A stretch of DNA of 57,152 nt, the filler included, from Sphacelaria rigidula (taxonomy: Eukaryota), in the NCBI GenBank assembly GCA_964200075.2. It is 8 parts of 8 records of this genome, joined end to end, with 100 filler letters (N's around TTAATTAATTAA, not from the genome) between each part and the next. Parts side by side here need not be neighbours in the genome. Positions count along the whole stretch, not along the records: positions 1 to 7,057 come from CAXNAA020016719.1; 7 more parts are not named here. One strand, 5' to 3'. Position 1 is the stretch's first letter; every line of letters starts with the position of its first letter. The notes under the pieces were generated by a model. That model saw nothing but the letters and a program-made list of their open reading frames with translations, did no database searches and had not been told where the DNA came from. A program made the translations under genes and the position numbers. This document shows, piece by piece, positions 1-50,096 of this stretch.

Positions 1-24
1 GTCCCGGCTCTGTAGGGATGCGAG

Positions 25-69
25 GTCAATGGTCTCGTGACTATGGCATGCATGATCATGAGTACACCC
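25..69 (-). repeat. Terminus of an unidentified repeat (GGGTGTACTCATGATCATGCATGCCATAGTCA...), second copy at 14159-14202
   Basis: TGACTATGGCATGCATGATCATGAGTACACCC here is the reverse complement of 14159-14190. Both copies lie at contig edges. Confidence 0.75.
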
Positions 70-1399
70 CCCCCTGGTTGGTGAGGGAGCCTCGCGGGAG
101 CGCCGCCGGAGGCTAGAAATATTGCGGTATTTGGCTTGTTTTCCCTTCAAAAATGTGCTTCTTTGTAAAAAATGTGACCCCTCACATTGGGGAGCTAAGA
201 GGCTCATTAGATGACATCACAATGTGAGTCAAAGCGGTGAGCGATTCGGAAATCATTCATCTGCAGCAGGCAGCACCAGGCGCTCTCCGTGAGGAGTGGA
301 TGATAGTAACAAGGGAGTTAGCTTAAGGCTGGCAGCACGGGGGGATGAGAGCGCAAAACTATTCACGTCCGGGCCGACAAACACACACACATGTAGTTGA
401 ACAGCAAGTAGCCATTGTTTATTCCGTATTTTGTGGTCACGGGTTAGCGTTTGTTATTATTCTTGTTTTTGGGTGTCGTGGAATGAAACGACAAACCTTG
501 GCATGTATCCGTTATACTCGTATCACTTCGAGGTGTAGTGAGCATGTGCTGCATCATGTCCATGATGCTCCTGGTGCAATTGACATGTGGCATTTGGGGT
601 TTGGCGTTCGGCAGTCGCGCATCAAGCATCCCGCCGTGTATAAGTCACAGCTCCTTTTAATTCATTCATTTTCCTCATTCGACGGATCAGGTGTCGACCT
701 ACACGCTACGGTCGAAAAAGTATGACAAACTGCAAAACTACGAGGTACCAACGGAGCAGACGGGACAAAAAAAAGCAGAAAGCATCTGAAGTAGTCAGCT
801 ATCAATAGTGACTGGCCCAGCGAACCCGTTCTTCATGTGCTACGGTACTACCATAGAACGCGACACCTATACACCACTGCTTCGCGCGTCAACGCAAACA
901 ATTCCCGTCGACGCCTTCGAAGCGCCGTCCGTCTCAATTGAAACCACATATTCCTCTGCAACTGTAAAGTGCAGGCCTCAGTTGTAGTCAAATTGTATAC
1001 AATGGTGTAAGCATATTTGTTATAAACTCACCCCACAAGAACTTGTATAAAAATAGCTGGTAACGGCTAACCTCAAATCAACTGGATAAACTGACGCCCT
1101 CGTCGCCAGTTCCAGTTTAACTCCAGTCCCAGTTCAATCGACAGTATAAATTGGTCCAGTTCATACCTTTATCAATTTTTGTACCTTGCTCTGTCGTGTC
1201 GTCTTCCCTCAGCTCAAGGACGTATTGGTGAACAATTTTTGAGTCTCGGCAAAACTTTATTTGAAAGGGTGTGATCAGTAGCATCATACCACACTACGCG
1301 ACGTGCGCTTTGACCACTGCCGTCTAATACACTTATGCACTGACGGCCGCATGGTATATCCGCGGTGCTTCGGGTGTCGCTTTGCGCGTGTATGCACAG

Positions 1400-1548
1400 C
1401 AAGTTCACAAAGGGCGTGTTAACAGCGTCAAGTTCAGCCCACCTTCATCTCGGTGGGGGGACGCGCTCAGCTCGTCGTTGCTTGCTTCTGTTGGTGATGA
1501 CGGTGTATTGTCAGTGCAAAGGCTTGGCGACGATTCGTGCCATAATAG
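1400..1548 (+). CDS. Penultimate exon of a WD40-repeat protein (MEP50/WDR77-like)
   Basis: CAG acceptor at 1397-1399 and GTAAG donor at 1549. Translates QVHKGRVNSVKFSP...LLASVGDDGVLSV, a WD40 repeat. Ends in phase 2 and joins the next exon in frame. Confidence 0.8.
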
Positions 1549-1811
1549 GTAAGAGACACTAGGAGTCGAGTTTAGCTCATATGCCACATCTCGTACGCCT
1601 CTACAGTTTTCATGCTTTTGTCCACCAAACCGCAAGAGTTATACTGACTGTGTTGGATCCCGTTTGCTTCAGCTTCATATTGTTGGAGTACACTAAACTG
1701 CAACTGCTTTCGGCATGGGCGTTCCTGTCACTCAAAACAAAGTTTGAACATGACCTCACTGCCAAGCTCTGCGTATGCGCGAATCTTTCATATTTTGCAC
1801 CCGTCGATCAG

Positions 1812-1944
1812 GTCCGTGTTGCATTCAGACTACATTCGGGCGCTCGCCTGGAATGATGCAAGCAATCTAGTTACCGGCGGGTGGGACAACACTGTGCGCA
1901 CAGTGCAACTTAGCGCTGTCAGCCCTGAATCGGTGCAGAACTAA
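1812..1944 (+). CDS. Terminal exon of the same WD40-repeat protein
   Basis: AG acceptor at 1810-1811, phase 2 (AG+G = Arg). Translates SVLHSDYIRALAWNDASNLVTGGWDNTVRTVQL...*, a clear WD repeat resembling the last repeat of MEP50. Upstream exons not identified. Confidence 0.82.
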
Positions 1945-2695
1945 TAGCTGGACACGACCCGCCGTCAGCAGTATAGTGAGGTCCCACAGATGATATCTCA
2001 GCCGTATGAAGCGGGGATGGTCATCCAACGATAAGGGGAGAAGATTTTTCAACCAAAAAAATACCCCAAAAGAGCCACGTTGAGCGTGAGGCAGCATAGA
2101 GCTTTTGGATTCCTCTTGATGTTCATATTCAGCGACATGTTGGTACCTTGGCGATGCGTTACCTCAAGAAACATGTGCTTTGTTGTACTTTATAGCGTAC
2201 GAACCCCCTTGTATAGGGCAACACTTTATAATCCTACCGTGGCTTGACTAGGTCGCGTAGCCCGCACCAGGTGATCGCAAGAGTTTCGGACTGTGATCGA
2301 GCCACGGTGTAGCTGAGGAGTATCCCCGTCGTCGATTGGTGATCCGTGTAATAAGAGTCTCGTCTATGGAGAGTGCGTTTTGGCAATGATATCGTTTCGC
2401 CGCTAGAACGATCGACTTTTTAGTAGTTTACCACGAACTCATTGCATTCGAATGCCCACAGTTATTTCTCCAGCCGAATATTGGCCTCTTTGAGCCACAA
2501 TTGAGTAAGAACAAGAACCCACTCCCGCCGTAGGATGGCTGTCCGAAACTATTTTCGCCATTTTACTTTCCACATCGACACCAACAGCATGCTACGAAGT
2601 CGTTACGAAGACTTCCTGAAGCGACCGACGTCTCATATTATCTCCTTTGTTCGGGCGACAATCTGGTCACCACCCTCCTCCCACTGGCTAAGGAC

Positions 2696-2836
2696 TGTGA
2701 CGATTTTAAAAGATAACCAACTAGACCACTGACCAGTCAGTGCCGACTGCTCAGTAGTCTAGTTGGTTGTCCCTTAAACCGTCACAAAAGTTAGTCGTTG
2801 GTTCGATTCCCGTCGGACGCATTTTCTTTGAAGAAG
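2696..2836 (+). mobile_element. Truncated copy of the palindromic-LTR mini-retroelement (one LTR plus start of internal region)
   Basis: TGTGACG...CGTCACA palindrome at 2696-2786 followed by AAAGTTAGTCGTTGGTTCGATTCCCGTCGGACGCA, matching 4891-5040. Confidence 0.85.
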
Positions 2837-2939
2837 CTCACACGCACACATACACTGACGAACCACCACAAGCCGCAAAAGCAACAGTAGCAGTACTGTT
2901 GTACGGAGATCGCCGTTGAAGTTATCGCACACGCTTCAC

Positions 2940-3908
2940 GCCCGCGCATAACAGAGCTGGCACACCATTTTTGAACCTACCCACCCAAAACAGAGCAGGC
3001 GGCATGCCACGGCGCGCACACGCAAAACACAGCTCACACGCACACGTACACTGACGAAACACCACTACCTAGCCGCAAAAGCAACAGCAGCAGCGGTACT
3101 GTAGTACGGAGACCGCCGTTGAACTTATCGCACACGCTTCACGTGCCTAGCAGGCAACTGAATCATCACGTACTCTTGTGTGTTTGGATCAATTGTTGTG
3201 TGTTTGTTTCAAATGTTTGTAGTGAAGATATATATTATATTCCGGGTGTGTTCGCCGTTATCTCGCTGTTCTTCGCTGCGTTCATTGTGTTGGCGTGTTG
3301 GTCAGGGACAACAAGAGCAGTCTTGAAAACGCTTTCGATGGCGATATCAGCAAACCATCTGCTGTCGTCCTGATTGTTGAAGTCGCTTGTGCTCACGGCA
3401 AGGCTTTCAGAACCGTAAATGCCACCGTCCCGCACAATATTTTCTGTATAGCGCACCGTACTGTCTACTACTACTTACTGTCTGCGGTTAGGGGCAAATG
3501 CTACGCGGCACTCTGTGTACTAAATACCAGAAACAATTGATCCAAGCACACAATGATTGATCTTGACACACAAGAGTGCGTACTTCAGTTGCCTGTATTG
3601 TCTCTGGAACATACTTTTACTACAAACATTTGATCCGAACACACAACAATTGATCCAAACACACAATAGTACGTGATGGTTCAGTCGCCTGCTAGGCGCG
3701 TGAAGCGTGTGCGATAAGTTCAACGGCAGTTTTTGTACTACAGTACTGCTGCTGTTGCTTTTTCGGCTAGCTACTGGTGGATCGTCAGTGCATGTGTGCG
3801 TGTGAGCTGTGTTGTGGGTGTGCGTTCTGTGGCATGCCCTATGTGCCTGCTCTGTTTCGGGTGGGTGGGTTCGAAAATGGTGTGCCGGCTCTGTTGCGTA
3901 CGGGCGGA
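2940..3908. repeat. Long inverted repeat / foldback element (arms ~2940-3227 and ~3612-3908) with a tandem partial duplication at 2836-2940
   Basis: The arms are reverse complements. The ORF track shows near-identical peptides MNLSHTLH...CVWINCCVF on opposite strands (3119+ and 3723-). Confidence 0.85.
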
Positions 3909-4020
3909 TTCGAAAATGGTGTTGGTAGGACCGGCGGGTCTACACAAATTCGATGTGAGACTGGTCCTAGACTGCTGGCAGGTTCTGTTTTTTGGACAGC
4001 GCTGGCGTGAATACGGCGGG

Positions 4021-4290
4021 TGCTCTTTTCGGGGCAAAAACGACGGAGAAGGGTCGAAAAAAAACTTTTCAACACGTCATGTTTTTTGATAACTTGACCG
4101 TTTGTTATTGAAGAAGTTTTTGTGGCCAAGAACGAAACTGTGACCTACGGAAAACGCAAAGGTGCTCTGGAACGGCCTCAGCGAGTAGAGCAAGTCATTC
4201 CAAGGTGTCAACATTCGCTGAGCCCTCTTTTCGGGGCAAAAACGACGGAGAAGGGTAAGAAAAATACTTTTCAACAAGTTATATTTTTCG
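4021..4290. repeat. Direct repeat CTCTTTTCGGGGCAAAAACGACGGAGAAGGGT, two copies ~200 bp apart
   Basis: Copies at ~4023-4055 and ~4224-4256, with similar downstream sequence. Confidence 0.7.
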
Positions 4291-4890
4291 ATACATAAGG
4301 AGCCTAACAAAGGAAAAGGAAAAAAGAAAACTGGAAGCGCGATGCGAAGCAGAACAATCTATTTTATATTCATGTCTTTGACTACTGGCATGATCATATG
4401 ATGGAATTCGTTCGCTGTCAATGAAAAAGTGAAGTTGGCAACAAGTGCTATGGAGGTTATATGTGTGTTGCCATGTATCGTATATCCTGTATAATGTATC
4501 ACCCGACTAGGAAGGCCCCCAGACCCGACGGGTAAGGTGGAAGGTGAGGATGCCGGGGTCAGAGGAATGCTACGGTGGGAGTGCAGAAATATTCTCCGAG
4601 GTTAGAATTGTTAGGAGCCTTTATCTCATCCAAAACACGATTCATGAAATATGTGAGAGTACGCCAGGTTTACTATTTCAATGTGCTAGAGACATCGCGG
4701 ATGAATTTGCGAACAAGGGTTACCATGTTCTTGCGCATCTAGAACCTTCGGGAGTCCCTGAGCCAGACAAGATTTCGCGCAAAAAGTGTATTCGTATCGT
4801 GGCATTGTTCGTCAGAGAATGAACTACCTACACCCTATTGCCAGCTTTGACCTGAATAAAACAGCCGATCATCGATATTGAGGATGGACC

Positions 4891-5802
4891 TGTGACGGTT
4901 TAAGAGATAACCAACTAGACTACTGACCAGTCAGCACTGACTGGTCAGTAGTCTGACTGGTCAGAAGTCTAGTTGGTTGTCCTTTAAACCGTCACAAGAG
5001 TTAGTCGCTGGTTCGATTCCCGTCGGACGCACTTTCATTGAAGAAAAAAAGAAGAGAGAAAACCTCGGTAAAAAATTGACTCAAAGAAAAGGGTGGGCTA
5101 TGTTTGGAGTGTACTGCTAGGGATCCAAGTGTACACACTCTGGAATGAGTGGGGGAGACGAGTAACTCAAGGGTACGGTGAAAGCGGCAACACTAGAGGT
5201 CCTGATGGCAGTCGATAGAGCGCTGGCAAGGGGAGTCGCCCTCCTCAGAGTGAAAGAAAGTGATGGGGACTGAATCCCCACGACTAACTTTTGTGATGGT
5301 TCAAGAGACAACCAACTAGACTACTGACCGCTTACTGGTCAGTAGTCCAGTTGGTTGTCTCTTAAACCGTCACAAAAGTTAGTCGCTGGTTCGATTCCCG
5401 TCGGACGCACTTCCTTTGAAGAAAAAAGAGGAGAGAAAACCTCTGATAGAAAGTTGGCCCCAAGGAGAGAAACCTCAGTAAAAATTGGCCCAAAGAAAAA
5501 GGGTGGGGCATAGCCTGGTGGCTATGTTTGGAGTGTACTACTAAGGTCCCAAATGCGCACACTCTCGGAATGAGTGGGGGAGACGAGTAAGCCTAGAATA
5601 CGGTGAAAGCGACGACACTAGAGGTGCTGATAGCAGTCGATAGAGCGCTGGCAAGGGGAGTTGCTCTCCTCGGAGTGAAAGTGACGGGGAGTGAACCTCC
5701 ACGACTAACTTTTGTGGTGGTTTAAGAGACAACCAACTAGACTACTGACCTGTCAGCGCTGACTGGTCAGTAGTCTAGTTGGTTGTCTCTTAAACCGTCA
5801 CA
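4891..5802 (+). mobile_element. Tandem TRIM-like non-autonomous LTR element with palindromic LTRs (LTR 4891-4996, internal 4997-5291, LTR 5292-5374, internal 5375-5712, LTR 5713-5802)
   Basis: Three TG...CA-bounded direct repeats alternate with two homologous ~300-340 bp spacers. GACC lies on both flanks (4887-4890, 5803-5806) as a 4-bp TSD. No credible ORF. Confidence 0.85.
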
Positions 5803-5845
5803 GACCTTTCCATTGAGGATGAGAACCCGCAGGATTGAAATCGTC

Positions 5846-6160
5846 GTATCCACACAAAATCTTCGAAATATGGTTCCATCCCTTCACCCACTACGACGTC
5901 GCTCGTCGTAGCTATTGACAACTGCTACACGCCCTAGTAATTTGGATTTCGATTACCGAATTGTTGAGGTCCTAGGGGTAAAACCAATTTCGAAGAATTT
6001 CGGCGATCGGATCAGATCACCTCAAATTCCCCATTTTTTCTTCATATAGGACCCCAACATTTCGGTTACCCAAATCCAAATTTGTAGGGCGTGTAGTAGT
6101 TGTCAATAGCTACCATTAGGTAAAGGAATGAAACCATGTTTCGAAGATTGGGTGTGGATA
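5846..6160. repeat. Degenerate foldback/MITE-like inverted repeat
   Basis: GTAGCTATTGACAACTGCTACACGCCCTA (5908-5936) pairs with TAGGGCGTGTAGTAGTTGTCAATAGCTAC (6085-6113). Complementarity extends outward to TATCCACAC/GTGTGGATA. Confidence 0.75.
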
Positions 6161-6914
6161 TGTCACGAATAACGTGGTGGATGTCTAGAGGTGAAGGGTG
6201 CCAGTTCGTGGGCACCCGAGTAGTCATCTCAAAAGACATGCAAGCACCAGGATCCGACCGAGTTCGATGATGATTGTGCATGCAAGATGGTTTAAAGTAA
6301 CTCTCCACCTGCAGCGCATGCTCGAGGCAACACCAGCTGCAGGCAAGCCAGGCTTACTTTGGACGAAAAAGCGACACCTCTGATATCGCAGTCCATGGAT
6401 GGCGTAAATGCTTCTTGTATTATCGGCGACAGGCTAGTGGGTGCTGTACGTGCTGGGATCAATCCTAAAAGCTCTGTGAAAACATGGGTAGATAATCTGA
6501 CACAAAGCATGAGAAGAGTATGACACATGAGCCTAGTCGACTGGAAAATGACTAATAAATCCATGACATGCCCCCAGCCTTATATATAAGGTTAAACAAA
6601 AAGGATTTATGGGCTGGCGGGGCCGAAAAAAAAACGAAGCCTGTACATCAACGCCTTAAGATAAAACGAGAAAAACCTGCATAATTACAATGCAGGGGAA
6701 AACTCGATATGTAATGGATAGGTAAACCCTGTTAGACAGGGGAAAACCCCATCCGTTAGGAAAGGAAAAAAATATATAGCGCCCTTTCCAACGACAGAAA
6801 CAGCAGACAAGTACGGTTAACAGCCGATCCTAATTTTTGGGGTTGAACTAAAATATGAGGTTTAACCCGCAAATCGCTTCCGATGGGAAAATACCAAACA
6901 GTAACACGAAAGGA

Positions 6915-7050
6915 AGATGTTTTCCCCCAACACACCGCAGGAGGAGTTGGGCAGTTCGGGCTAGGTGCGCCCAACGAATGCGGTGTACACGCGTGTCGAT
7001 GGCGATATCACCAGAGAGAGAAGCAACGACAGAGAGGAAGCTCCTCGCCC
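6915..7050. repeat. Dispersed repeat fragments shared with 28629-28700 (inverted) and 48003-48080 (direct)
   Basis: GGCTAGGTGCGCCCAACGAATGCGGTGT versus ACACCGCATTCGTAAGGTGCACCTAGCC at 28629. GTGTCGATGGCGATATCACCAGAGA versus GTGTCGATGATGATATCACCAGAGA at 48004. Confidence 0.7.
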
Positions 7051-7057
7051 GGGTTCT

Positions 7058-7157
7058 NNNNNNNNNNNNNNNNNNNNNNNNNNNNNNNNNNNNNNNNNNN
7101 NTTAATTAATTAANNNNNNNNNNNNNNNNNNNNNNNNNNNNNNNNNNNNNNNNNNNN
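7058..7157. other. Artificial contig linker
   Basis: 44 N + TTAATTAATTAA (stops in all six frames) + 44 N. Confidence 0.98.
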
Positions 7158-14214: not shown

Positions 14215-14314
14215 NNNNNNNNNNNNNNNNNNNNNNNNNNNNNNNNNNNNNNNNNNNNTTAATTAATTAANNNNNNNNNNNNNNNNNNNNNNNNNNNNNN
14301 NNNNNNNNNNNNNN
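14215..14314. other. Artificial contig linker
   Basis: 44 N + TTAATTAATTAA + 44 N. Confidence 0.98.
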
Positions 14315-21371: not shown

Positions 21372-21471
21372 NNNNNNNNNNNNNNNNNNNNNNNNNNNNN
21401 NNNNNNNNNNNNNNNTTAATTAATTAANNNNNNNNNNNNNNNNNNNNNNNNNNNNNNNNNNNNNNNNNNNN
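21372..21471. other. Artificial contig linker
   Basis: 44 N + TTAATTAATTAA + 44 N. Confidence 0.98.
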
Positions 21472-22899
21472 AGGCCAGTGGATTCTGGAGAAGTCCCTCA
21501 CTGAATAGCCCTCTTGTCCAGATCGTCTGGCAGAGGCTATAGTCCACGGTGCAGGCGAAACAGCACGTCTTTTTGCCACACGCGTCGTCCGCCTCGCAGC
21601 ACCCGCCATGAGTTCTTCGGGGGAAAAACGCAAGGAAACTATGATTTCTGCCGTAAGCGGCAACGAGGTACGCAGCCAATTCACGGCCTGAAGGAATTGC
21701 ATGAGTTCTGCGGCCGTCTCCGGGCGCCGCATGTCAGAAAAGCTTTGCAATCTGACAGGGTCATGAGATACGCGTCCGTGTGAGTACTCTTCCCCACACC
21801 ACACGAATTCACCAGCGAAAAAGGTACACTTGTGCGCAGCCGCAGACAAACCAACACTCTTTAAACGAGCCAATATAGCTTCAGGCGTGTCTGAAAGTTC
21901 GTCTTCCGTGTCCGCGAAAAAAAGCACATCATCCACCCATGTCTTGTCTTTTAAGCCGACGACAGGTTCTGTCATGATGCCTTGAAAATATGCCGTGGCA
22001 TTTAGCACGCCTCGCGGCACTCGATTCAGGCTAAACAGGCGAAAATAAGTCGTGATGGTGAAAATCACCTGCGCCTCCTCCGCCAACGGCATCTGCCAGT
22101 AACCTTGGAGGAGGTCGAACTTGCCAAAATGACGAGTACGCAACAGATCACGTATGCCCGACCTTTGATTGGGCATCATACCCAGCGACTTCTCAACCTA
22201 CTCATTTACGGCCTTGTAGTCGCTCACCAGGCGAAACGAGTCCTCCTTCGGAACCGCCATAGCCGGACTGGACCACACCGCGTGCAAGTTCCGGAACACC
22301 AATCCGAGCGCCAAAAGAGCCGCCATGCACGACGCCAACCAACTCGACTTCACCGGATTGTACCGCCGCGGCTTCAGCTTCACCGCGGACGCCCCGGGTT
22401 TTAGCTGAGCACGCATGGGCTCCACTTGCGCAGGGGGATCACCCCGCAGCGCACGACGAAACGCGTTGACGCGGCGATGCAAGATGCCACGCAGGCGCTC
22501 TGCTTTTGACACGCTGAGGCCTTTCGCCACAGCATCCGTCACGCTCTCCTCAAGAGCGACCTTCCGAGCGGACTCCTTTTCCGTCGGATCCATGAACATC
22601 TCCGAGCCGCGCTCCACCAAGTGTTCCGCCGCCTCATCCCGCTCCTCGATCATCTGCCTCCTAGCCTGCTGACAAGCGTTCACCGACAAGCTCACGCGAC
22701 GACTGCCCAAAAAGGCGGACGTCTCCACGCACGGACCAGGCGGAGATATCCGCGCATTCATGGAGCCCCACAACTGCGCATACGAGTCGACTCTAAGATC
22801 CTGAAGCGTCAGAAACCCCAGAAGAATGACGCCATCCGACCCCGACATGATCGTAAACGATATCGGAGGCAACGGCGCCGGCCCCCAGGAAGTCGTCAA
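21472..22899 (-). pseudogene. Gypsy pol (end of protease and reverse transcriptase), disrupted
   Basis: ORFs 22198-22899 and 21472-22179 are separated by an in-frame stop. RT motifs as above. Confidence 0.92.
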
Positions 22900-24743
22900 A
22901 GCCAGCTGCAGCGGAACAGTACGTTACGTGACGGAAACATAATAACCCGACGCGCTGACGGCCTGCCGCGCCCCGAGCAAAAACGGAATGCGCAGCGGCA
23001 CATCCTGGAGAAAATGCTCCACATCTACACAATCTGCACCAAATAACTCGTGATGTGGGCACCAGAATCCAACAAAGCCCGAACCGCAATGGCTCCACGC
23101 TTCCGCTGATTAGGAAGACACAGTTCCACAGGAACGTACTTGTCCGCAAACTTCACTGGCACTTTATCGGCCGACCGATGCGCCGCTAATCCCACTTGAC
23201 GCCACGGGTGCGCAAGCTGCGCTGGCGAAGACGCCCCGGCGGGTTCAAACAGCACCGCCGGTGAGCACGACCCCCAGCCAGCAGACCGAGAATTTGGCGA
23301 AACTCCGACCAGCGCATCAGCAGGCGTCGCGCCTGGCGCTGCTGTCGGGGTCGCCACCGGCGCCACCACCGGCACCGGCGCAGTGTTCGACACTGTATAA
23401 GTCGGTCCCACCCGCATCGCTCGTTGCGGAGCAGCAGCACCTACGGCGGCGCCGAATCCAGAACCAGACCCATGCTGCGCCGCTGCTCTTGCTGCCCTTG
23501 CTGTCCTTGCTGCTGCTGCTGCTGCTGAGAACTCGACTGCGACCCTCCATCGTCGGAGAATCCGCGCCACCACCCCAATCACCTCGTCGTTTGCCCTTGT
23601 GCTGACGATGATGATGGCGCGCGGCATGAGACTGCCCAGACTCCCCACCGGAAGACGTTGGGCAATCGCGCGCGTAATGGCCGACCTGGCCACAGCGGTG
23701 GCAGTTGATGGTCGAGGCGCGGCCGGCCGATTTCGAGCCGTGGTGGCGCAAAGACTCAGGCGTGGAGGTGGACGACTGGCTGAACACCTCTATCTTCTGC
23801 CACCTCTTGGCCTCGGCCACGACGGTGTCTATTACCAGGTGAGTGTTGGCGTTCCGGTTTGTCTCTTGCTGCAACTTGACAAGCACGGCTTGCTTAAATT
23901 TTCCGGCGCCAACCCCTCCACCTAAGCCTTGGTGATTACTGCAGCCGGGCCCGGAATGAACTCACCATCGGAGGAACGATATACTAGTTCAACGCAACGT
24001 TTGGATTTTCTGAGAAGTACTTCTCCAGAATGGAGAAGATTGGCCCTATCCGCCCTAACAGTGTCTTTCCCCAGGACGCTACGGCGACCGCTTTCGCCAC
24101 GGGCGCGGAGGCTTGGGTCAGCTTCACCTCGGCGCCCGCCGCATGCCCAGCATGCTTTTTGACCGCCGCCACCAATTGCGGCGGGGTGATTGTGCTCTCA
24201 TCATGTTACACTCGAGCAAACACTCTCTGCACATGCGTCGGCACTTGTTGAGGCATCAACACTATCTGATATCGCACAGCACCCCCTGCGTTAGCGTGCT
24301 CCACACGCTTCTTGTACTCCAAGTACTTGATGTAAAAAGTGCGAGATGCATTCTCGGAGTACCTACCCCGGTATTTGGGAGGTCGCGACTCTTCCCACAT
24401 AATCATGGGCGTCACGCTGGACGCAGCACGCGAGCCGGTCGCCATAGCAGCAGCCGCCTACCTGCGAACCTTTCGCAGGCCAGCGGACCGTTGCAAATTA
24501 ACACTTCACCCTTGCTTCGTCGCCGCACTACACAGTCGTAGGAGCCTCCAAACTCCCGCTGCACGCAGCTTCAGCAAGTCTCTAGTCTGGAGCAATCAAA
24601 GGCTAACCGCCTTTCGGCAACCACCTCAGCTTCGACCCCCTCCACGCATCCGTGGTGAATCAGGTCGTCTCCAGCCACCAGACTCTTCCGCTGAAACTCC
24701 GGCAGGTTCCGTTCGGTACTAGTACTAGCACGGATACCGATAC

Positions 24744-24899
24744 TGTGACGCTAGCCAGGAGAAAACTGCTGAATCACTGTTGTTTGAGGTCCTCCCCAGT
24801 AGTATTAGCCTTAGTTTCAGTTGTCAGCCTTTACAACCTTTCATTACCCGGAGTGCCCTTGTACGCACAACCTCATAGACCCTCTCTTAAACCGTCACA
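24744..24899 (-). repeat. 5' LTR of the gypsy element (156 bp)
   Basis: Bounded by a 7-bp inverted repeat TGTGACG...CGTCACA, upstream of gag. Followed on the minus strand by CGGTATCCGTGC, 9/12 identical to the initiator-Met PBS TGGTATCAGAGC. Confidence 0.75.
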
Positions 24900-28528: not shown

Positions 28529-28628
28529 NNNNNNNNNNNNNNNNNNNNNNNNNNNNNNNNNNNNNNNNNNNNTTAATTAATTAANNNNNNNNNNNNNNNN
28601 NNNNNNNNNNNNNNNNNNNNNNNNNNNN
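28529..28628. other. Artificial contig linker
   Basis: 44 N + TTAATTAATTAA + 44 N. Confidence 0.98.
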
Positions 28629-29587: not shown

Positions 29588-29805
29588 TTGTGTGGGAGGC
29601 CCGCGTGCCAAGGGGGTCGCATCGTAATTCAAGACACCTCAGGATCGACGTGTTTCAAACTAATCAGGCCAGTCCTTGCCGGGAACACGCCCCTGACCAT
29701 AACCCCAACACTAACTCTAACCCTTACCCTAACCCTAACCGGTTAGGGATGTTGAAATTCCGATGCGGTCCCCCAGTCTAAGCACGTGGTCCTCCCACGC
29801 ATTGC
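29588..29805 (-). mobile_element. MITE with internal telomere-like (CCCTAA)n tract, older copy
   Basis: Reverse-complement homologue of 30207-30423. CTAACCCTTACCCTAACCCTAACC at ~29717-29740. Confidence 0.75.
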
Positions 29806-30206: not shown

Positions 30207-30423
30207 CGTTGTAATGCGTGAGAGGACCGCGTGCTTAGAGGACCGCGTCGGAATTTAAACATATTTATGGTTATGGTTAGGGTTAGGGTTAGTGTTGGGG
30301 TTAGGGTCAGGGGCGTGGTACCTGCAGGGACTGGCCCGATTGGTTCGAAAAACGTCGATCCTGGGGTGATTCGGACCACGGCGCGGTCCTCTAAGCACGC
30401 GGTCCTCTCACGCATTTCATACG
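30207..30423 (+). mobile_element. MITE with ~35-40 bp TIRs, TA flanks and internal degenerate (TTAGGG)n
   Basis: AATGCGTGAGAGGACCGCGTGCTTAGAGGACCGCG (30213-) is a perfect inverted repeat of the sequence ending at 30416. TA on both sides. GGTTAGGGTTAGGGTTAG inside. Confidence 0.85.
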
Positions 30424-35684: not shown

Positions 35685-35784
35685 NNNNNNNNNNNNNNNN
35701 NNNNNNNNNNNNNNNNNNNNNNNNNNNNTTAATTAATTAANNNNNNNNNNNNNNNNNNNNNNNNNNNNNNNNNNNNNNNNNNNN
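35685..35784. other. Artificial contig linker
   Basis: 44 N + TTAATTAATTAA + 44 N. Confidence 0.98.
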
Positions 35785-37580: not shown

Positions 37581-39730
37581 TTTTGGCACCTTCTACTCCA
37601 CAATCGTGTGTTAGCGGCAGGTAAAAATGTTTTCGTGAGATTGAGAGTAGGGCGTTGATTGAGAATGGGTTCTATCATTCGCTTTCAGTATGCCAACTAT
37701 TCATTCCGTGTGTGCTTCTCTTTGCCTGTATCACTTGCGTGTGCTCACAGCTACACGTCGATATCTTACTCAAGAATATCAAGGGCTTGACATAATCTTT
37801 TTTCATGGCAGTCACCAATCTCGATTGTTCTGAACATCGGGGGGAACAGACACGAAGAGACCGACTTCTGGGGCTCATCCAGGCTCGTGGGGCAATATTT
37901 GCCTTTCGTCATCGAAAGAGAACGGCATGGATCCAAAATTCATATCGAGAAAAAGTGGACTGCATCCAAAAATCAGAACCCTACCGTTATTTCCGTTGTT
38001 GTTCCTCATATATATCATGCCACTGCGTCGCTTTTCGTCCGCGCTTGCGATGCGCTGGCATACAAGGAGTCTAGTTGGGTTGGCCGAACCCAATGCACAC
38101 CGAGAACACTCAGGCAAGGGCGGTACATATATTCCCTGAACGAAGTGAGGCCTTGGTGGACCCCACATTGGCGCCTGTGACGCCGATTTCAACAAAAACG
38201 CGTTCTGCGCACCCGAGGAGCACACGGGACTGTCAGCCCTACTAATATTCCGATTCTCGTTGTACACACTCAAATCAAGTAATATCAACCATGAACATTT
38301 GTAGCCCAACCCCGGTAACTGAAACCAGGAAGCTGAACCATTTTTGGGGGGGGATACGGATCGAAATTGGGCCAACATGATGTGCTCAACATGCGACAGA
38401 GCCATATGCACTGATGAACGTCACCGAGGATGGCCCTTACACAGACGATTGGAGTACAAATAGTCACCGGGTGTGCGATGTGGGCTGGGTGGGTGTTGGC
38501 ACCTCGTCATGTTTCAAGAACAAGCTAGATTGTGACGAACGAACGTAAGCTGTGTGTGCCACTACTGTACATTCTGTGATTTTTCGAGTTATGATCTATC
38601 AATTGCCGTGCACAAGAGTGCTTTTTAGAGTCCGCGGATGAGCAGTCATGTCTGGCAGTCACGTATAAGACAACATAATGCCGTTTCAACAAATAGACAG
38701 CACCCTCGGCGTTTTGGAGGTCAAGTATTCATATTGGTTTCTTCAGTTGGGGAGACCGTCGTTCTCATGATTTCAGTTGGGGTGAGGAACCTTGGTAATG
38801 TGTCACGTTTTTTATCACCCCCGACATCATATGTGGGCTCATGTGAACGCTGGGGTCCCATGTATGAAGAAAAAAACTTACGGGGTCAGGGCCTTTCCGA
38901 AATGTTCATAGCATAACATTTTCGGTGACGAAGTTGGGTTCCGCTGCATTTTCGATGTCGACAAACCACGCAACACCCCTTCACTTCGTCACCGGAACTA
39001 CTTCACTCTTTGTGGATGTAGATGGCTCCACCATATCGGAAACAGAGGACGAGTCAGACTCGACTCATACGAGTCATCGGCAACGAACTCACGTCTAATT
39101 TAACAATCCACAACTACGACTGGGGCTCGTTACACGTGTGAAGACTCGACACTGCAGACTTGACACTGCAGATTCTCGGAGTTGGTGTTGGACTGACTGT
39201 CCTTAGTCACACCTGCCTCCGTTCGAGGTTGTTCGTGACGAAAAAAGCTGGGGACGTCGGCTGTGACGCGCCCCTCGAATAGTTACCATCCTTAACTTTT
39301 ATTTTAATAAGCGACGGTGTGGACGGTGGTGCTCCGACACCGTGTAGGCGTCGGCCGTCTCAGAACCCCAAATTCATTGCATCTGAGGAGAACGAAGGAG
39401 TAAATTGGACTGTCAACACAACAGTGCCCGCATTTTTGGAGTAGATTCTGTTAGTTTCAGTCACACAGATTTTGTGTAGCCGTGCATGCAATGAAAAACG
39501 GTTGGGCACAAAGCATGGTGGTGCAAGTTCGGAATTTGCTGTCATGTCTTTGACCAGTGAAGTTGCAGAGTGTGGAGGCTCACAGCCAAGGTAAACGCGA
39601 ATTATTATCTCCGCGAGTAGTAAGTACGAGGCGCTCGTCCTATGCGTTCATGATAAACCGCACATGCATGTCGACCACTCCCGAAAGTGGTACTCACTGC
39701 GCAATTTCGTGCGAACGTGTGCCGATGCAG

Positions 39731-40033
39731 GCACTTCTTGTCAAGCTACCCACGTCTTGTGAGCCGTTGCCGGGTGCTGGTGAAAGAAGACACCTGGAAA
39801 CGGGTCGACACGATAGACTCAACAGGGAAAATGAGAGCCCACGATCATGCGTTTGTCAAGGCTGGACCACACTTCATGTACGGGCGCAGCGAAGGGACAA
39901 GAGGCGCAGATGGATTGTTGAACATCGCTGTATTTGGTGGCGTGAAGAATTTCACGCTTTTCAAGACTACCCAATCCTCGTTTACTAACTTCCACGTGGA
40001 CAACAACACTTCGCTTCCTGAAGCGACGGACAG
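39731..40033 (+). CDS. UOX: Urate oxidase (uricase), internal exon
   Basis: CAG acceptor and GTTAG donor. HFLSSYP...W...HDHAF...LFKTTQSSF...SLPEATDR match conserved uricase motifs (H-x-H-x-F, KTTxSxF, LPExxDR). Confidence 0.93.
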
Positions 40034-40403
40034 GTTAGCAAGAGGATGGGAATACGATTGTCCGGGAGAGAGATGGGTTGATCGCGTAAGACTACGGCCT
40101 CGTCCCGAGAAAGGAAAAAGGTTGAAAGTGTACCAAATTTGTACCTACATATGTATAGCTGCACGTTCGAGCAGACGCTTCTCCTCGGGGGAACAGGCGG
40201 TGTTCGTACCATATTGTAGTTCTGCCTTTGGAGTAGAGTGCTATGAATCGTTAAAGTACACGATGAGAGAGCATTTTATGTGTTCAGATAACTTCTGCTG
40301 GAAACGTAGCGGGTTTTGATGGAAGTTCTTACTCTGATCCTTCAACAATACTTTTCGCGTGAAAAGAAAGCGAGGCGAACAAAATCTCTTCAAAATATAT
40401 GTG

Positions 40404-42840: not shown

Positions 42841-42940
42841 NNNNNNNNNNNNNNNNNNNNNNNNNNNNNNNNNNNNNNNNNNNNTTAATTAATTAANNNN
42901 NNNNNNNNNNNNNNNNNNNNNNNNNNNNNNNNNNNNNNNN
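42841..42940. other. Artificial contig linker
   Basis: 44 N + TTAATTAATTAA + 44 N. Confidence 0.98.
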
Positions 42941-45900
42941 ACCATCGCTGAAAGTGTGGGGATAGCACTGTTTTAGGCTTGAACCTCATCTCAAAGTTAA
43001 ACCTCAATTCGCACAATTTGTTGTTCAAAGCTGTTTACCTCCTACGATACAACGGCAGTGTTGGTATTACACTCTCCGACGATCCTCAACTTTTGGGAGT
43101 TGCACGAGTTCGCCGAAATGGCATACCAGTACTTACGGGTCATTATCTTGCTGAAATGCTACCCCGTATTAGCCTACCAGCCAACACAGAACATTTTGTC
43201 CCGGCGGGACAACAACTCCTCCCTCTTACGGGTCATGCTTGGAACCCGGCGATATTTGAGGAATCGCCGCTGCTCCTCGGATGCACATCCCACTCGAGAC
43301 GTGCGTAACAGAGCCTGCCGAGCCCAACGCACCATCTCCGACGGCGTCAGTCCATTGTGTCGATGAACCTTTTTTCGATATCGCTTCTGCGACTCCACCC
43401 CATGTCCACGCCGTGGATCCTGCCGAGTCAAACGATCCTCCTCCTGAAAAGCTTCAACGCTCATCAACATATTCTCGGAATCATTTCTTGCAAAAGTGGT
43501 CTCAACTGCCGCCACACATGCGTGATATCAATTTTGACCTTCATGGACCCGGCTGGGAACCGGCAGTCATCTGAGAACTCAGTGATGTCCTGCTACAGTA
43601 CCAAGACTGATTTTCTCGATCCAAGACGGATCTTGGGCACTGCAAAACGCTGCCCTTTGAGGTTACCCTCCAACCCGGCGTCTCATCAATCTCTTCTCGA
43701 CCGTACCGGACAAACCCAATCCTTACCAAGAAGGTCAATACCATCTTGGATGCACATTCGGGAGCGGGATTAATACAACATTCCTTCTCTCTTTGGGCCT
43801 CGCCCCTTGTGGTCGGTCCGCAAAAGGATGTAAACATGCGCATAACCGTGAATTACCAACGGTTGAACCGCGTCACTGAGATTGGTAAACTTCCAATCCT
43901 CCGCGTTGATGAAGTCTTCGACTCCTTATGCGAAGGCGAAATATTCAGCACCTTCGACCTCGCTTCTGTCTTTTTTTTTAGAATGCTATCCCCCCTGACA
44001 CAGTCCCACTAACGGCCTCTTGTACCTCGTCCGGGCTCTACGAGTGGCTTCGAATGCCACAAGGCGCTGCCACTGCTCCGGATGCTTTCATCGCTTAATG
44101 CAACGCGTCACCGAGGGCCTCGAGCACATCATCATGTACCTAGATGACGCTATCGCTTTTGATGCCTCACCTATTGCACACATCCGCACTCTACGAGAAC
44201 TTCTCTCTCGCACACGAACACACGACTTGAAACTGCCTCCATCCAAAGGTCGCCTCGGTGCGACTGACTTAAATTTCCTGCGTCCATTCAATTTCGCCAG
44301 CAGGACTACATCCGGATACAAACAAAGTCAGGGCGATGACGGACTTACCGATGACAACCAACATCTCTCGACTTCGCTCATTGTTGGGCGGACTATCCTA
44401 CTACCGCAAACGTTTACCGAATTCATCTAAACGGATTCGCCCCCTTACTGAGTTACTCAAGAAATGAGCCGTGTTTACCTTCACAACCGATATGGAGAAT
44501 ACCACCGAAAGCCGGTACTCTGTTTTCCTAATTGGGAGGCAAAACAAGATGGCTCTCGCCATCGTTATCTCCACATTGACGCCAGCACAGACGGATTTGG
44601 AGGAGTTTTGAATCAACCTCAGGTTGATGGCTCCGTTCGAACCATCCTCTACATCAGCCGCGCCACCCTGCCCAGCGAGGCCAACTGGAGCCCGCTAGAA
44701 TTGGAAGGTGGAGTGATCACTTGGGCCACTAAGCGCCTTCGGCGATATTTGTTTCACGTGCCCTTTGAGATTTATACCGATCATGGAGCACTCGAACAAC
44801 TCGCCAAGGTTGGCGAACACAACCCGCGTGTGCAAAAATGGCTGGAGTTTCTGACAGCATTTCACTATACCATTAAGCACCGTCCAGGCAAAATCAACGA
44901 GAACGCTGATCTTCTTTCTCGACTACCCCTGCCGCCTACGGCCGCAGATTTCAGCCCGGCTTGCTGTTCAACTGACCTGATGAACCCGGAATCTACCCGA
45001 TTAGACGTTCTTCAACGCCCGTTTATGCCCTCGATCTCCAGTGCCCAGAAACTGGTATGCATGTGGGAGGACCTCGCCCTCTACCATATGACACCATCTT
45101 GGGTGAGTGAAAGCCCACAACTGCGGGCTTTGTGGACTTCCGTACTTTTGGTACTCACGCGAAGCTTTCCACGGGAAAACCTTCGGTCACCCATCTAATC
45201 TTCGACAACACGCGCTCCCGGTCTGCGCCCGCCCCACCCCTCCGAGTGCCCCGCCGCCACTGATAACACCTGCAAATTCCACGAGCCACGCAGGACCTGT
45301 CCCACGGACCAGCACGCAACGCTCCGCGAAAGCTCGGACAATCTTCGCTGCGCACTGATACAGCCCCGCCGCGCATAACGGTGGCACTAACATCTACCGC
45401 TCCCGAGCATAGAGTCGACGACTCAGCTCCTGCTCCCGGGGCAGATATTGACGTCGGCATTTCTGTCCCGTCGCCTATTCCCCCGCTGCCTACCGCACCA
45501 TGTTTGGTCAGCTCTCCAGCAGAAGGTAAACTGCGCGAGTTTTTCGCCAGCTACTCTCACTGCGACTGGGCTCGCGAAAAAAACTCGGAACCATTATGTC
45601 GAGCAGCCATCCGGTACTTTGACTGTCCAATCCCTTTTCCGTCCGCCATTCTGGCCCCGGTGGGCACACTGCCACCACCAGATATCTCTGACGTACGAAC
45701 TCGTGCGTAAAGGCACTACTGTTAATACGGATGAAGGCGAACAACTACTCGTGCGTCGCTCCACGCCTTTGACGGGCGCAATTTCCGTCTCAACCATGAG
45801 ACGCCACGCACGACTACTCGATGGCGAACCAATGCCCATATATCTCCCATTATTAATGCGCCCCTAGGTCATGAAAGGCTGTCACACAGACTTGTCATGT

Positions 45901-47063
45901 CACCTTGGCGTCACCCGCACCCTAGCGCTCTTGGAACGATTTTACTGGTGGGTTGGCATGGAAATTTCCACCCGCTTCTGGGTTCGGCGATGCTTCAAAG
46001 GCCAAGCCCTAAAACCTTCACGACAGACAGTACGCTGGTCCGTCATCTCTATGGGACTCCCCAATGCCCCAGACCACCTTGTGTCCTTTGACTACTTTGG
46101 CCCTCTACGGACCACTGGTCGCGTCAACACCTATATCTTACTCTTCACTGACCGCTTCAGCCGCCACGTGTCCATGTACGCGGTAACCGCTGCATATTTC
46201 ACTGCCGCCGGAACGGCCGATATATCGGTCCACGGCTACATTAAGCACTACGGTTGCCCGAAACGACTCCTTTCAGACCAATTTCTCTCAGATCTCTCTG
46301 ATAAGCTCTACAAGCTCCTGGGCATCCGCAAAATTGCCACTAGCGCCTGCCACCCGAACGGTAACAATGGTACCGAAAGAGTTAATCACACCATGGCCCA
46401 GATGATCTCTATGGTCGTCAATGACCGCCAAAATGACTGGGACCTACATCTCTCGCACATCATGGTGTCCTACAACAACTCGATTAACGCCGCCACAGGC
46501 CTTTCCCGGAACGAACTCCGTCTTGGACGTTACCCTCGGTTGCCCATCACCGCGTTTGAGCGACACACGTTCGATGGCCACCAAGGATTGGATCAGGATC
46601 AGATATCCTATCACGAACTAGCGCACTCACGACAATGCAAATCGTTCACCCTCGTGCGCGAACAACACGCTATCAACGCCACGCGCCTTGAGAGATCCAA
46701 CACTGCTCTCTACAACGTCCTGGACAAATGCCTCGACTGGAAAGTTGGTGATTGGGTTTGGATCTACAACAGTTTGTCGACCATCCGCCAAGGCACCAGC
46801 AAAGCCGCCAACGAAACAACTTTGAAGACAAAATTGCCCATCAACTGGACAGGACCTTTCAAGTTCCTGACAGTTGGATCATCGCCATCATCACTGGATG
46901 ATAAACCCGTTGGTGACAAACTGCTCTACCTCGACCTGCCTCACGACCTCCAGGGCAAGGACACCAAACCCCGCGTCTCGGTGCACAGATGCAAAGCCTG
47001 CAGGAACCCGCATGATAAAAGCGAGATGCCCAAGCATCTACCTGCCGGACTCAAACGGTACGT
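42941..47063 (+). mobile_element. Second Ty3/gypsy retrotransposon, pol region (RT, RNase H, integrase), degenerate
   Basis: RT WASPLVV, RITVNYQRLN, FDLAS and YLDD (43746-44300). RNase H DAS..GFG, ELE, YTDH and NADLLSR (44464-44940). Integrase follows RNase H. Many frameshifts. Confidence 0.95.
45871..47063 (+). pseudogene. Gypsy integrase (HHCC zinc-finger remnant and DDE core)
   Basis: CHTDLSCHLGVTRT...FYWW, FDYFGPL, FTDRFSR, LLSD, NNGTERVNHT, WTGPF. Small deletion after LSD. The ORF tail beyond ~47063 looks unrelated. Confidence 0.92.
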
Positions 47064-49112
47064 TGTCAGGTACGAGTGTGAACTTGTAAATAAGATATCA
47101 ATTGGGGTGTCGTGCCACACCCAAGCACTACACCCCCCTCCCAGCAAGGGAGTCTAACATCGATGAGACTGACTGATAGAGTGTGAGAGGTCGGATACTG
47201 TGAGGATTGAGATAAAGTAATCAAGAAGAGACATTATCTACCTACGCGTGACATTCTGATACCTTTGACACGTGTGTGAGGGTGGTACGCAGTGTAAACA
47301 TATACTGCATAACACTTGTGCCTATTGTGCGGCTTGTTTGTCCAGCCTGTTGACTGGCCCCCCGCCTTGCCTATTGAGCCTGCGCTTGCCATACGTCCAG
47401 CACAATCCCATGACACTTCCCCCTGATTAGACGATAAGTACGATATGCGGATCACGCCCCAACTTGTTTGTGTCGATGAGATATGGCCGCGAGAGTTTGA
47501 ATCCGTTTTCAGGCTGGTCCAGGTCGTATTGATCCCCTGAAGGACCACCCGAAAAAACTACAGATTCGGTCACCATCTAAGAGGTTGGTAGTTGTGAACT
47601 TCAGCCTCATAGAAAAAAGGTTGCCCATGAGAACGGGTGCCCAGTTCAGAGGTTCCAACAAGGTCGACAGCCCACCATAAACGGCCGCTACAAAGAAGAA
47701 CGTCATTTTGTATTTGCCGCGCATTATCGATGATAGATGTTCAGTCGTGCATTCAAAGTTGATAATTTTGTTTGATGCAAGAGGCTTTGTCACCTTCTAT
47801 TGTCTCCGAGTGGAAGCTATCGCTGTTGCGGAGGCAAGCGGCGATATGAACATGATGGAGGATTCTGAAAAGTGGGGGTCGAGACTGACAATGGGATTGA
47901 AGCTGCCTTCCGAAAAGGCACATTTCCCCCGAAACTTGCGGATCTTTTGTTGCTGTTGCCGCTAAGCACGTGTGGCTAGTTTCAATCAATACTGTGTACA
48001 GGTGTGTCGATGATGATATCACCAGAGAAGCAATGATATCACAGGAGAAGCAACGGTGGAGAGAAAGTTCCTCGTCCGTGCCCGTTTTGTGTCCTCGTTC
48101 GGCGATTTCCAATCGCTGGAAAGAGTTTCATCACGCTACCAGCACATACCCAGTTTGCCATCGTCGGCACACGAAGGGCAGATGGTTTCGTGTGCAGCTC
48201 CCTAAGAAGATCCGTGTGCCCAGGGTTGCCGTATTTTGACTGATGATCGTCTCTTGTCTGTGGCGCTGACCAATGCAATTCTCTCTCTGCCTCTCTTTTC
48301 GGATAGGACATACCTCTATGCGCTACAAAACACCGTCGAAAAACAGGGCGATGTTCCCGTCACCACTACTGTTCTCACACACACGCACGTGCGAGCAAGG
48401 ACGGTTTGCGGCAAGATCTAATCGCATGTCGGGGGGGTGTTGTTGTTTTCGTCGTTGATATTGCCCGACGTTTAGCACAAGGACACGAGTCATGCACATC
48501 CCAGTTGGGGGCATGCATAAGAGATCAGACACCCATGGAGACCTTCTTAGCATGCGGAGTGAGACACTTTCTACGACAGCCTCCCCCAAAAACCAGCCCA
48601 AAAGTGTCACGAAAAACATGGTCATACAGCGCCTGATGTTTGGGTTCAGGCTGCATGAAGCGCTTCATAGTGGCGACATTGGCTAGAACGAACCCAAGCG
48701 TGGTAATCCCCAGCTGTTCGTTGTGCTCGGCTTTTCCCGTTTTGATTTACATGGAAGTGTTGCCTTCCAAAACATGCACGTTTGGGGGGGGCGGCTATCG
48801 TAGAAAGTGTCGTGAAAAATGATAAATCTGGCGGTGGCTTAGCTGTGGCTAGCGTGACCCATATGGGGGCTGGCATACTGCACTATGTGCGCTCATCTGA
48901 TATACAGTTGGTCGCGTGCGCAGAGGTGTGTATGTGTGTTTCTTACAAGATTCGACTCTGAGGAGGCCATCGCGAGTTGAGACGAGATATGTTTCCACCA
49001 GGGACAAAGTTTATCCATCTGCCGTTTCATTTGTGACCCACGCCAAGAGCTGTTCCAATTCCAATTTCACAAAGTAAAGTTGGTTTCTGCTGTGGGTAAA
49101 AATTCGACTAAG

Positions 49113-49996: not shown

Positions 49997-50096
49997 NNNN
50001 NNNNNNNNNNNNNNNNNNNNNNNNNNNNNNNNNNNNNNNNTTAATTAATTAANNNNNNNNNNNNNNNNNNNNNNNNNNNNNNNNNNNNNNNNNNNN
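49997..50096. other. Artificial contig linker
   Basis: 44 N + TTAATTAATTAA + 44 N. Confidence 0.98.

Follow-up and report, generated by a model that had tools for sequence, protein, structure and literature searches.

A small non-coding element at positions 4891-5802 of the window is best explained, with moderate confidence, as a TRIM-like parasite of a gypsy-type integrase that would carry an internal Pol III promoter derived from a tRNA. Its repeats and bodies have a defined anatomy, its promoter boxes originate from a tRNA, it was inserted with a 4-bp target-site duplication and its ends are common to the LTR of a gypsy-like element of the same window; the use of Pol III, the passage through an RNA intermediate and the identity of the partner are suggested by this arrangement. 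The window, i.e. the whole stretch of DNA that was analysed (57,152 nt), is made up of eight pieces, each 7,056-7,057 nt long, with linkers of the form N44-TTAATTAATTAA-N44 between them, and the small element sits in piece 1 (1-7057). Transposons abound in these eukaryotic pieces, with fragments of Ty3/gypsy-type RT, RNase H and integrase. A uricase fragment is also found among them. Comparisons were made with contigs under the label 'algae metagenome', from runs X1 and X2 (DNA) and from runs X5 and X7, which are guessed to be RNA and were available in contig form. Chance was estimated with shuffled sequence, tRNAs were called with ARAGORN, and RNA families were searched for with Rfam over positions 2400-6400 at E values up to 10. 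An independent tRNA scan covered the contigs of a metagenome collection, in which A and B blocks separated by 28-56 nt were sought. The features of the small element and of its second copy are the following.

4891..5802, plus strand: composite element, LTR-internal I-LTR-internal II-LTR, 912 bp, defined by repeat anatomy and empty paralogous sites
4887..4890, unstranded: left GACC of the 4-bp target-site duplication, from flank comparison
5803..5806, unstranded: right GACC of the 4-bp target-site duplication, from flank comparison
4891..4996, unstranded: LTR P2, a 106-nt palindrome with TGTGA..TCACA ends and a central 16-nt internal duplication
4997..5031, plus strand: first 35 nt of internal I, tRNA 3'-half block, 34/35 identical to 5375-5409
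5032..5291, plus strand: remainder of internal I, with 3' end CGACTAACTTT (5281-5291) and a junction-spanning TTTT (5289-5292)
5292..5374, unstranded: LTR P3, 83 nt, with arms 5292-5329 and 5337-5374 and A-box block 5343-5356
5375..5409, plus strand: first 35 nt of internal II, an 11-nt box AAAGTTAGTCG (5375-5385) followed by the 22-mer (5388-5409)
5410..5712, plus strand: remainder of internal II, with a 22-nt polypurine run (5418-5439), 3' end CGACTAACTTT (5702-5712) and TTTT (5710-5713)
5713..5802, unstranded: LTR P4, a near-perfect, loop-free palindrome of 90 nt (45+45 nt, 93% complementary) with A-box block 5771-5784
2696..2835, plus strand: second, truncated copy, composed of P1 (2696-2786), the 35-nt block (2787-2821) and ~14 nt of internal sequence

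The TG..CA palindromic repeat occurs in four copies in the window, each of 83-106 nt and with TGTGA..TCACA ends, and the basic unit is formed by one such LTR and an internal region of 295-338 nt. In the composite element three copies of the repeat alternate with two of the body, and therefore the repeat is the terminal unit. The truncated copy, P1 with 49 nt of body, is broken off by an unrelated inverted-repeat element of ~1 kb. No ORF of at least 150 aa is present in the composite element, and its RNA-family matches are of the hairpin type alone. The composite element is nested inside another repeat, with the 4-bp duplication on both sides, and contigs of X1 and X2 that carry paralogous copies of the flank jump directly from 4885-4889 to 5806-5807 (1-7 contigs per row). 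The joint from 4888 to 5806 is carried by 7 X1 and 4 X2 contigs and that from 4887 to 5806 by 5 X1 and 7 X2 contigs, while in 25 X1 records the left flank stands directly before 5806 (28/30 letters as in 4860-4889). By these empty paralogous sites, 4891-5802 is one real insertion with a GACC/GACC duplication. At an identity of at least 85%, positions 4700-6000 are matched by 9,152 contigs of X1 and 11,950 of X2, figures that are not copy numbers and that indicate that element and flank are both multi-copy. A DIRS-like or tyrosine-recombinase element was considered and rejected because a target duplication is present, and a retrozyme or ribozyme satellite was rejected because the Rfam scan returned no ribozyme match.

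The same boundaries already contradict the reading of the locus as a tandem tRNA-derived SINE, made of head, body and short T-rich end, in which the palindromes would be artefacts of the junctions. Such a reading, to which we give hardly any credence, would accommodate a tRNA-like head of 74 nt that contains A and B boxes, then ~300 nt of body and a TTTT end. However, the empty sites place the ends of the mobile unit at TGTGA/TCACA in the palindrome arms and not at head and tail, the duplication is fixed at 4 bp, and an A-rich or LINE-like tail is absent from the element. Moreover, the three borders with unrelated DNA (2696, 4891 and 5802), which are independent boundaries, fall at the same symmetric position.

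The sequence-only reading of this DNA had proposed a tRNA-derived promoter split across the junction of LTR and internal region, and its two blocks are real and occur together at three sites. The 14-nt A block TAGTCYAGTTGGTT is found in the right arm of all four repeats, exactly at 2755, 5343 and 5771 and with one mismatch at 4965, and its reverse complement is present in all four left arms; with up to two mismatches the window contains 10 matches to it, against 0.62 expected from shuffles. The 22-mer GGTTCGATTCCCGTCGGACGCA, corresponding to B box, T arm and acceptor, is found exactly at 2800-2821, 5010-5031 and 5388-5409; no match to it came up in 100 shuffles. The B block does follow the A block, as had been proposed, at a distance other than the ~40 nt then given: it starts 45 nt past the start of the A block, leaving a gap of 31 nt in the three units. 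From 7 nt before the A block through the final A the sequence measures 74 nt, compared with 73 nt in a typical tRNA-Glu gene. The two blocks also straddle the junction as proposed, with A inside the TG..CA repeat and B in the internal region, so that the B box (5388-5398) starts 14 nt past the LTR end at 5374, and likewise at 2800 and 5010. The stretch between them is formed by the repeat end TCTCTTAAACCGTCACA, as the same reading had it, plus 11-14 nt of internal sequence. No B block follows P4 (5713-5802), since the element ends with this repeat and gives way to flanking DNA. The three sites with both blocks are copies of one family and hence not independent events; the case against chance comes from the independent metagenome scan.

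In that scan both blocks, at a spacing of 28-56 nt, were found at 47 places, 46 of them inside tRNAs called by ARAGORN and one without a tRNA call, which bears out the earlier proposal that the blocks are tRNA-derived and stand in tRNA register. The 46 tRNAs comprise 23 Glu(CTC), 19 Glu(TTC), 2 Gln, 1 Ser and 1 Gly. A tRNA-Gly(UCC) had been named as the donor type, and this part of the proposal finds no support, since the tRNAs that share both blocks are Glu in 42 and Gln in 2 of the 46 cases and a pattern so nearly exclusive to tRNAs of the Glu/Gln kind argues against such a donor. Of the 46 metagenome tRNAs, 40 have a gap of 30 nt between the boxes, as against 31 nt in the element. All 14 letters of the A box and all 11 of the B box are as in natural tRNA-Glu genes in the three units, and there are 42 such genes with which the element agrees fully in both blocks.

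Outside the boxes little of a tRNA is retained. The 31 nt between the boxes give 14.2 matches when compared with tRNAs and 15.6 when shuffled, only 2-4 of the 7 nt before the A block match a tRNA 5' acceptor, a 5' acceptor strand complementary to the tRNA-like 3' end of the element is absent, and the 11 nt past the B box have 6-8 matches to tRNAs in most cases. The 74-mers fold into structures other than a cloverleaf, with minimum free energies of -11 to -16 kcal/mol, compared with -27 for a real tRNA-Glu. ARAGORN at default settings called no tRNA gene at the element sites, and under relaxed settings these sites were called only at thresholds of 80-85%, beside other spurious calls. No tRNA, 5S or ribozyme match was obtained with Rfam over 2400-6400 at E values up to 10, and the matches to the palindromes were to hairpin-type miRNA only, below gathering scores. 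The exact 22-mer gave no match in the metagenome contigs, and the acceptor end is therefore without counterpart in that collection; the 22-nt junction pattern gave none in prokaryotic genome contigs. The boxes alone are tRNA-like, and the functional tRNA cloverleaf is gone.

Each palindrome arm can be read as an integrase end (TGTGA...) joined to the D-arm and A-box part of a Glu/Gln-type tRNA, while the first 35 nt of the internal region would provide the B box, the T arm and the 3' strand of the acceptor. The right arm and these 35 nt therefore make up a module of the length of a tRNA gene, in which nothing but the promoter boxes and the distance between them has been preserved. The likeliest role for this module is that of an internal Pol III promoter. 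Pol III would start near the palindrome centre and proceed through the body of ~340 nt toward the TTTT at the next repeat boundary, and the resulting RNA would be copied and integrated by the proteins of the partner element. The start, which we take to lie 12-19 nt before the A box, would fall at the palindrome centre (5330-5336 in P3 and ~5757 in P4). The first plus-strand T4 of each unit coincides with the next repeat boundary (5289-5292 and 5710-5713). A body free of T4 is not significant, since 1418 of 2000 and 1376 of 2000 shuffles (69-71%) are T4-free as well; because most shuffles share this property, the absence of T4 from the body is no sign of selection for Pol III. With respect to the elements of a tRNA-type promoter, A and B boxes that match those of functional genes are present at a workable spacing, 31 nt in comparison with 30. 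Letter-perfect boxes at their natural spacing, with the rest of the tRNA lost, would be the signature of selection for a Pol III promoter. Retention of the boxes with loss of the structure is also known from SINE heads and from Helenus, according to the section of the Helenus paper drawn on here (PMC10886601, Results 3.5).

The element could instead be an inert fossil, that is, a TRIM of the gypsy integrase with dead tRNA boxes, produced for instance by recombination of a SINE or tRNA gene with a short LTR, in which case its transcription would be due to Pol II or to read-through from neighbouring DNA. We consider this unlikely. In the runs guessed to be RNA, contigs cover repeats in full, left arm included, which, if these are RNA, runs contrary to a start at the centre. 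A Pol III RNA reaching from the centre to T4 would also have neither the left arm nor the terminal redundancy that standard LTR replication needs, and the insignificance of the T4-free body fits a fossil too. Against it stand the full agreement of both boxes with natural tRNA-Glu genes in all three units (14/14 and 11/11) while other tRNA features decayed, the 31-nt spacing that all three units have kept, and the coincidence of the palindrome centre with the place, 12-19 nt ahead of the A box, at which Pol III is predicted to start.

The pattern of conservation was also considered. Within the window the 35-nt block shows one difference between P2 and P3 and one between P1 and P3, and the aligned body ~10%. 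Among the 40 of 89 rows listed, the 35-nt blocks of the two complete copies are off the family-contig majority at 0 of 70 positions, the remaining internal positions at 33 of 563, and the arms at 2 of 83 in P3 and 3 of 90 in P4. These low differences in arms and block imply that repeat and block are better kept than the body. On the rows listed the boxes appear to be as well kept as the integrase ends, and the argument from box conservation is a weak one.

One further exact copy of the 17-nt repeat end is present in the window, at 24883-24899 (BLAST E 0.002), where it belongs to a candidate partner element with the following features.

24745..24899, minus strand: candidate partner LTR, 155 nt, starting TGTGACGG... 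and ending ...CGTCACA (BLAST E 0.002)
21472..23961, minus strand: gag (zf-CCHC, 1.5e-07) and RT (RVT_1, 6e-13), 3' of the candidate LTR on the same strand (Pfam)

This LTR shares its first 17 nt and its last 7 nt (CGTCACA) with the LTR of the small element. It is followed by ~290 nt up to an ATG, then by a gag ORF with a CCHC knuckle and then by RT, the best solved relatives of which are the Ty3 RT structures 4ol8 and 7q5b. The earlier suggestion that the stretch between the boxes is an integrase-type end is thus supported, as a Ty3/gypsy-like gag-RT element has an LTR that starts with these 17 nt. The gypsy-like element is cut at a piece boundary and hence its second LTR is not visible. What is seen of the candidate is half an element, in one occurrence, with 17+7 nt in common with the small element. 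By its ends and its genes, the gag-RT element at 21472-24899 is a better candidate for the autonomous partner than anything else in the window. A target repeat common to the small element and the gypsy-like LTR, considered for a resemblance in ACCCGCAGG, was rejected because the similarity is not extended.

Since the repeat is palindromic, long terminal repeats and terminal inverted repeats are indistinguishable by sequence. Furthermore, TGTNR termini and 4-bp duplications are common to gypsy LTR elements and Ginger DNA transposons, in the part of the Ginger description used here (PMC2836005). The small element might hence be a cut-and-paste MITE of the Ginger kind, with its 38-45-nt arms as TIRs for a transposase resembling the gypsy integrase and its boxes as what is left of a tRNA gene or SINE once captured, a remnant that plays no part in movement. 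For Ginger the same part of that paper gives TIRs of 40-270 bp, 4-bp duplications and TGTNR termini, all three of which have their equivalents here, and a MITE would also agree with the absence of a recognisable PBS or PPT from the element and with a symmetry that runs past the repeat on both sides. Nevertheless, we find this reading quite improbable. The targets reported for Ginger there are CCGG/CCGT or RTATAY, as opposed to GACC at the single site here, and the only matching terminus in the window is an LTR, by its gag and RT, rather than the end of a transposase gene. In addition, a MITE leaves unexplained both the head-to-tail order of body, repeat and body and the letter-perfect A and B boxes at tRNA spacing.

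When the eight arms are aligned outward from their centres, identity extends 11 nt past the repeat wherever internal sequence follows. The sequence AAAGTTAGTCG follows P1 and P3 unaltered and P2 with a single change, and its complement CGACTAACTTT precedes P3 and P4. Further in, the 3' end of each internal region contains the B-box block in inverted and decayed form, as seen near the 3' end of internal II. This extended outward symmetry gives the ancestor the appearance of two head-to-head tRNA-like units. Beside the repeat no complement of a tRNA 3' end (TGG-type) was found on either strand. A PBS search with 92 non-host tRNAs yielded a best complementarity of 6-9 nt, versus a shuffle mean of 7.3-7.8, and a 9-nt match of the minus strand to the 3' end of tRNA-Gln is not above shuffles. 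Neither strand has a purine tract before the next repeat, both reading CGACTAACTTT there, and the one long run of purines, at 5418-5439, is located 44 nt past an LTR, the wrong place for a PPT. With no tRNA-3'-end complement and no purine tract, the canonical signals of LTR replication therefore appear to be missing.

For 5330-5713 a panhandle is predicted: the 3' end CGACUAACUUUU is paired to the 12 nt past the right arm, and 44 nt at the 5' end overhang. None of 100 shuffles folds equally well (z -2.44). The panhandle is compatible with self-priming, yet it would be equally expected of any extended palindrome. The element might accordingly be a self-priming, Pol III-driven retroelement that dispenses with tRNA primer and PPT and restores a full palindromic LTR when only half of one is at hand, a scheme that we hold to be very unlikely. 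In such a scheme an RNA would run from the palindrome centre to the TTTT at the next LTR boundary, its 3' end CGACUAACUUUU would pair past the right arm, and the RT would copy the right arm into a left one. Repeated fold-back priming, through the complementarity of arm with arm and of box with box, would then generate full LTRs at both ends. The palindrome centre, as predicted Pol III start, could be the footprint of run-off and fold-back.

If the boxes work, the TRIM-like element would extend the TRIMp3 class to a lineage without an earlier report, and with a minimal design in which the promoter is split between repeat and body. If this reading is true, a repeat would amount to little beyond two back-to-back integrase ends, which bears on the minimal sequence needs of an LTR element. 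How the element is primed becomes a question in view of its self-complementarity and of the apparent lack of PBS and PPT. As a high-copy family, the element will moreover seed false tRNA-like and miRNA-hairpin calls in annotation.

The idea of a tRNA-based Cassandra is already in print. Kojima described in 2024 the Helenus elements, TRIMs with tRNA-derived sequence in their LTRs that were placed under the umbrella TRIMp3 (PMC10886601); the comparisons made here are with the main text of that paper, in which Helenus is listed for fungi, animals and Selaginella only (Table 1) and tandem arrays are given for one family, LTR-11_DR. Like Helenus, the small element is a short non-coding sequence (<~1.3 kb) with terminal repeats, with tRNA-derived A and B boxes in place of a functional tRNA, and with a tandem form. 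The TG..CA ends and a duplication within the 4-6 bp of Helenus are also shared, the 4 bp being as in the Gypsy-linked animal families, and in both cases the role of Pol III is suggested by the conservation of the boxes. In Helenus, however, the whole tRNA-like sequence lies in each LTR, whereas in the small element the internal region holds B box and tRNA 3' end, and Helenus has a PBS and a PPT where the small element has neither in recognisable form. The palindromic LTR of 83-106 nt and the complementary boxes of 11-12 nt that flank every LTR also set the small element apart from Helenus as there described. Therefore, by the features in that text, the element would be Helenus-like in its working but departs from three listed features: both boxes in the LTR, the PPT and, apparently, the PBS.

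With Cassandra the element shares a promoter of a small-RNA gene built into the repeat of a non-autonomous LTR element (PMC10886601), and long tandem arrays of Cassandra have also been reported (PMC7215508, in the part consulted). The Cassandra promoter derives from 5S rRNA, whereas that of the small element is tRNA-derived and without a 5S Rfam match over 2400-6400 at E values up to 10. A split of the B-box type is absent from Cassandra as presented in these sources, while the predicted promoter of the small element is divided across the LTR boundary. Pol III transcription of Cassandra is reported there to be validated (PMC10886601); the promoter of the small element is a prediction. Ginger1 and Ginger2 resemble the element in TGTNR termini, 4-bp duplication and inverted arms of ~40 nt, and differ from it, in the part of PMC2836005 used here, in target sequence; no transposase is linked to the small element, and its terminus is matched in the window by the gag-RT element only. 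In the tRNA-derived SINEs (SINE2), too, a head of tRNA-gene length keeps its A and B boxes while its cloverleaf has decayed. What points to an integrase for the small element, and away from LINE-mediated target-primed reverse transcription, is the nature of its ends, its terminal repeats and a duplication fixed at 4 bp.

Self-priming LTR retrotransposons of the Tf1 type have a PBS site complementary to the 5' end of their own transcript. The small element is comparable in that the site adjoining its LTR, at the PBS position, is complementary to the element's own RNA and not to a tRNA 3' end; the complement is the 5' end of the transcript in Tf1 and the 11-12 nt just before the next LTR here. 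In the literature searched for further work on Helenus, for tRNA-like TRIMs of algae and for a palindromic LTR, no such case was met, the last topic yielding software and structural papers only, and the supplements of PMC10886601 may list closer layouts. Measured against the main text of that paper, the layout described here is unusual, with its palindromic LTR, a B box outside the LTR, flanking boxes and no recognisable PBS or PPT, and it belongs to a general kind of element that was already described in 2024.

The truncated copy of the small TRIM-like element, which comprises one palindromic LTR, a tRNA-like block and a short remnant of internal sequence, is broken directly after that block by another repeat, and the small element itself lies beside a foldback:

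2835-3838, inverted-repeat element of about 1 kb with long inverted repeats
5847-6160, MITE-like foldback with arms 5847-5888/6119-6160 and 5908-5974/6047-6113

The arms of the interrupting element reach 147 nt, with a complementarity of 87-90%, and direct repeats spaced about 200 nt apart are found inside it. The foldback is a member of the highly repeated flank family that was the target of the small element's insertion, and in each of the four public sequencing runs its summed depth was the highest. Within the small element, internal II, the second stretch between LTRs, contains a 31-nt tandem duplication at 5429-5495 that is absent from internal I, and positions 5445-5492 are skipped in some contigs of the family.

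Eight pieces, each 7,056-7,057 nt long, make up the window, with N44-TTAATTAATTAA-N44 linkers between them (7058-7157, 14215-14314, 21372-21471, 28529-28628, 35685-35784, 42841-42940 and 49997-50096). Repeats or ORFs touching a linker are artefacts, and genomic adjacency is not to be read between features of separate pieces. Further features are:

29691-29740 and 30265-30312, telomere-type repeat arrays facing each other
39687-40319, ORF partly matching the uricase domain (Pfam PF01014, 1.2e-12)
44464-47157, + strand, Ty3/gypsy-type element ORFs with RNase H and integrase zinc-binding domains

The interstitial arrays are inverted, eight CCCTAA units against eight TTAGGG units, about 525 nt apart. 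The uricase-matching ORF is probably an exon-sized piece of a host gene. The Ty3/gypsy-type element probably belongs to a family other than that of the gypsy-like gag-RT element at 21472-24899, because no LTR bearing the TGTGACGG terminus was found near 44464-47157.

The palindromic repeats at 5711-5804 and 5282-5384 match plant miRNA precursor families in Rfam below threshold: the gathering score is 100 for MIR831, which scored 41 and 37 bits, and 200 for MIR4240, which scored 39 bits. The small-element family could give rise to false annotations of miRNA hairpins, or to real hairpin small RNAs.
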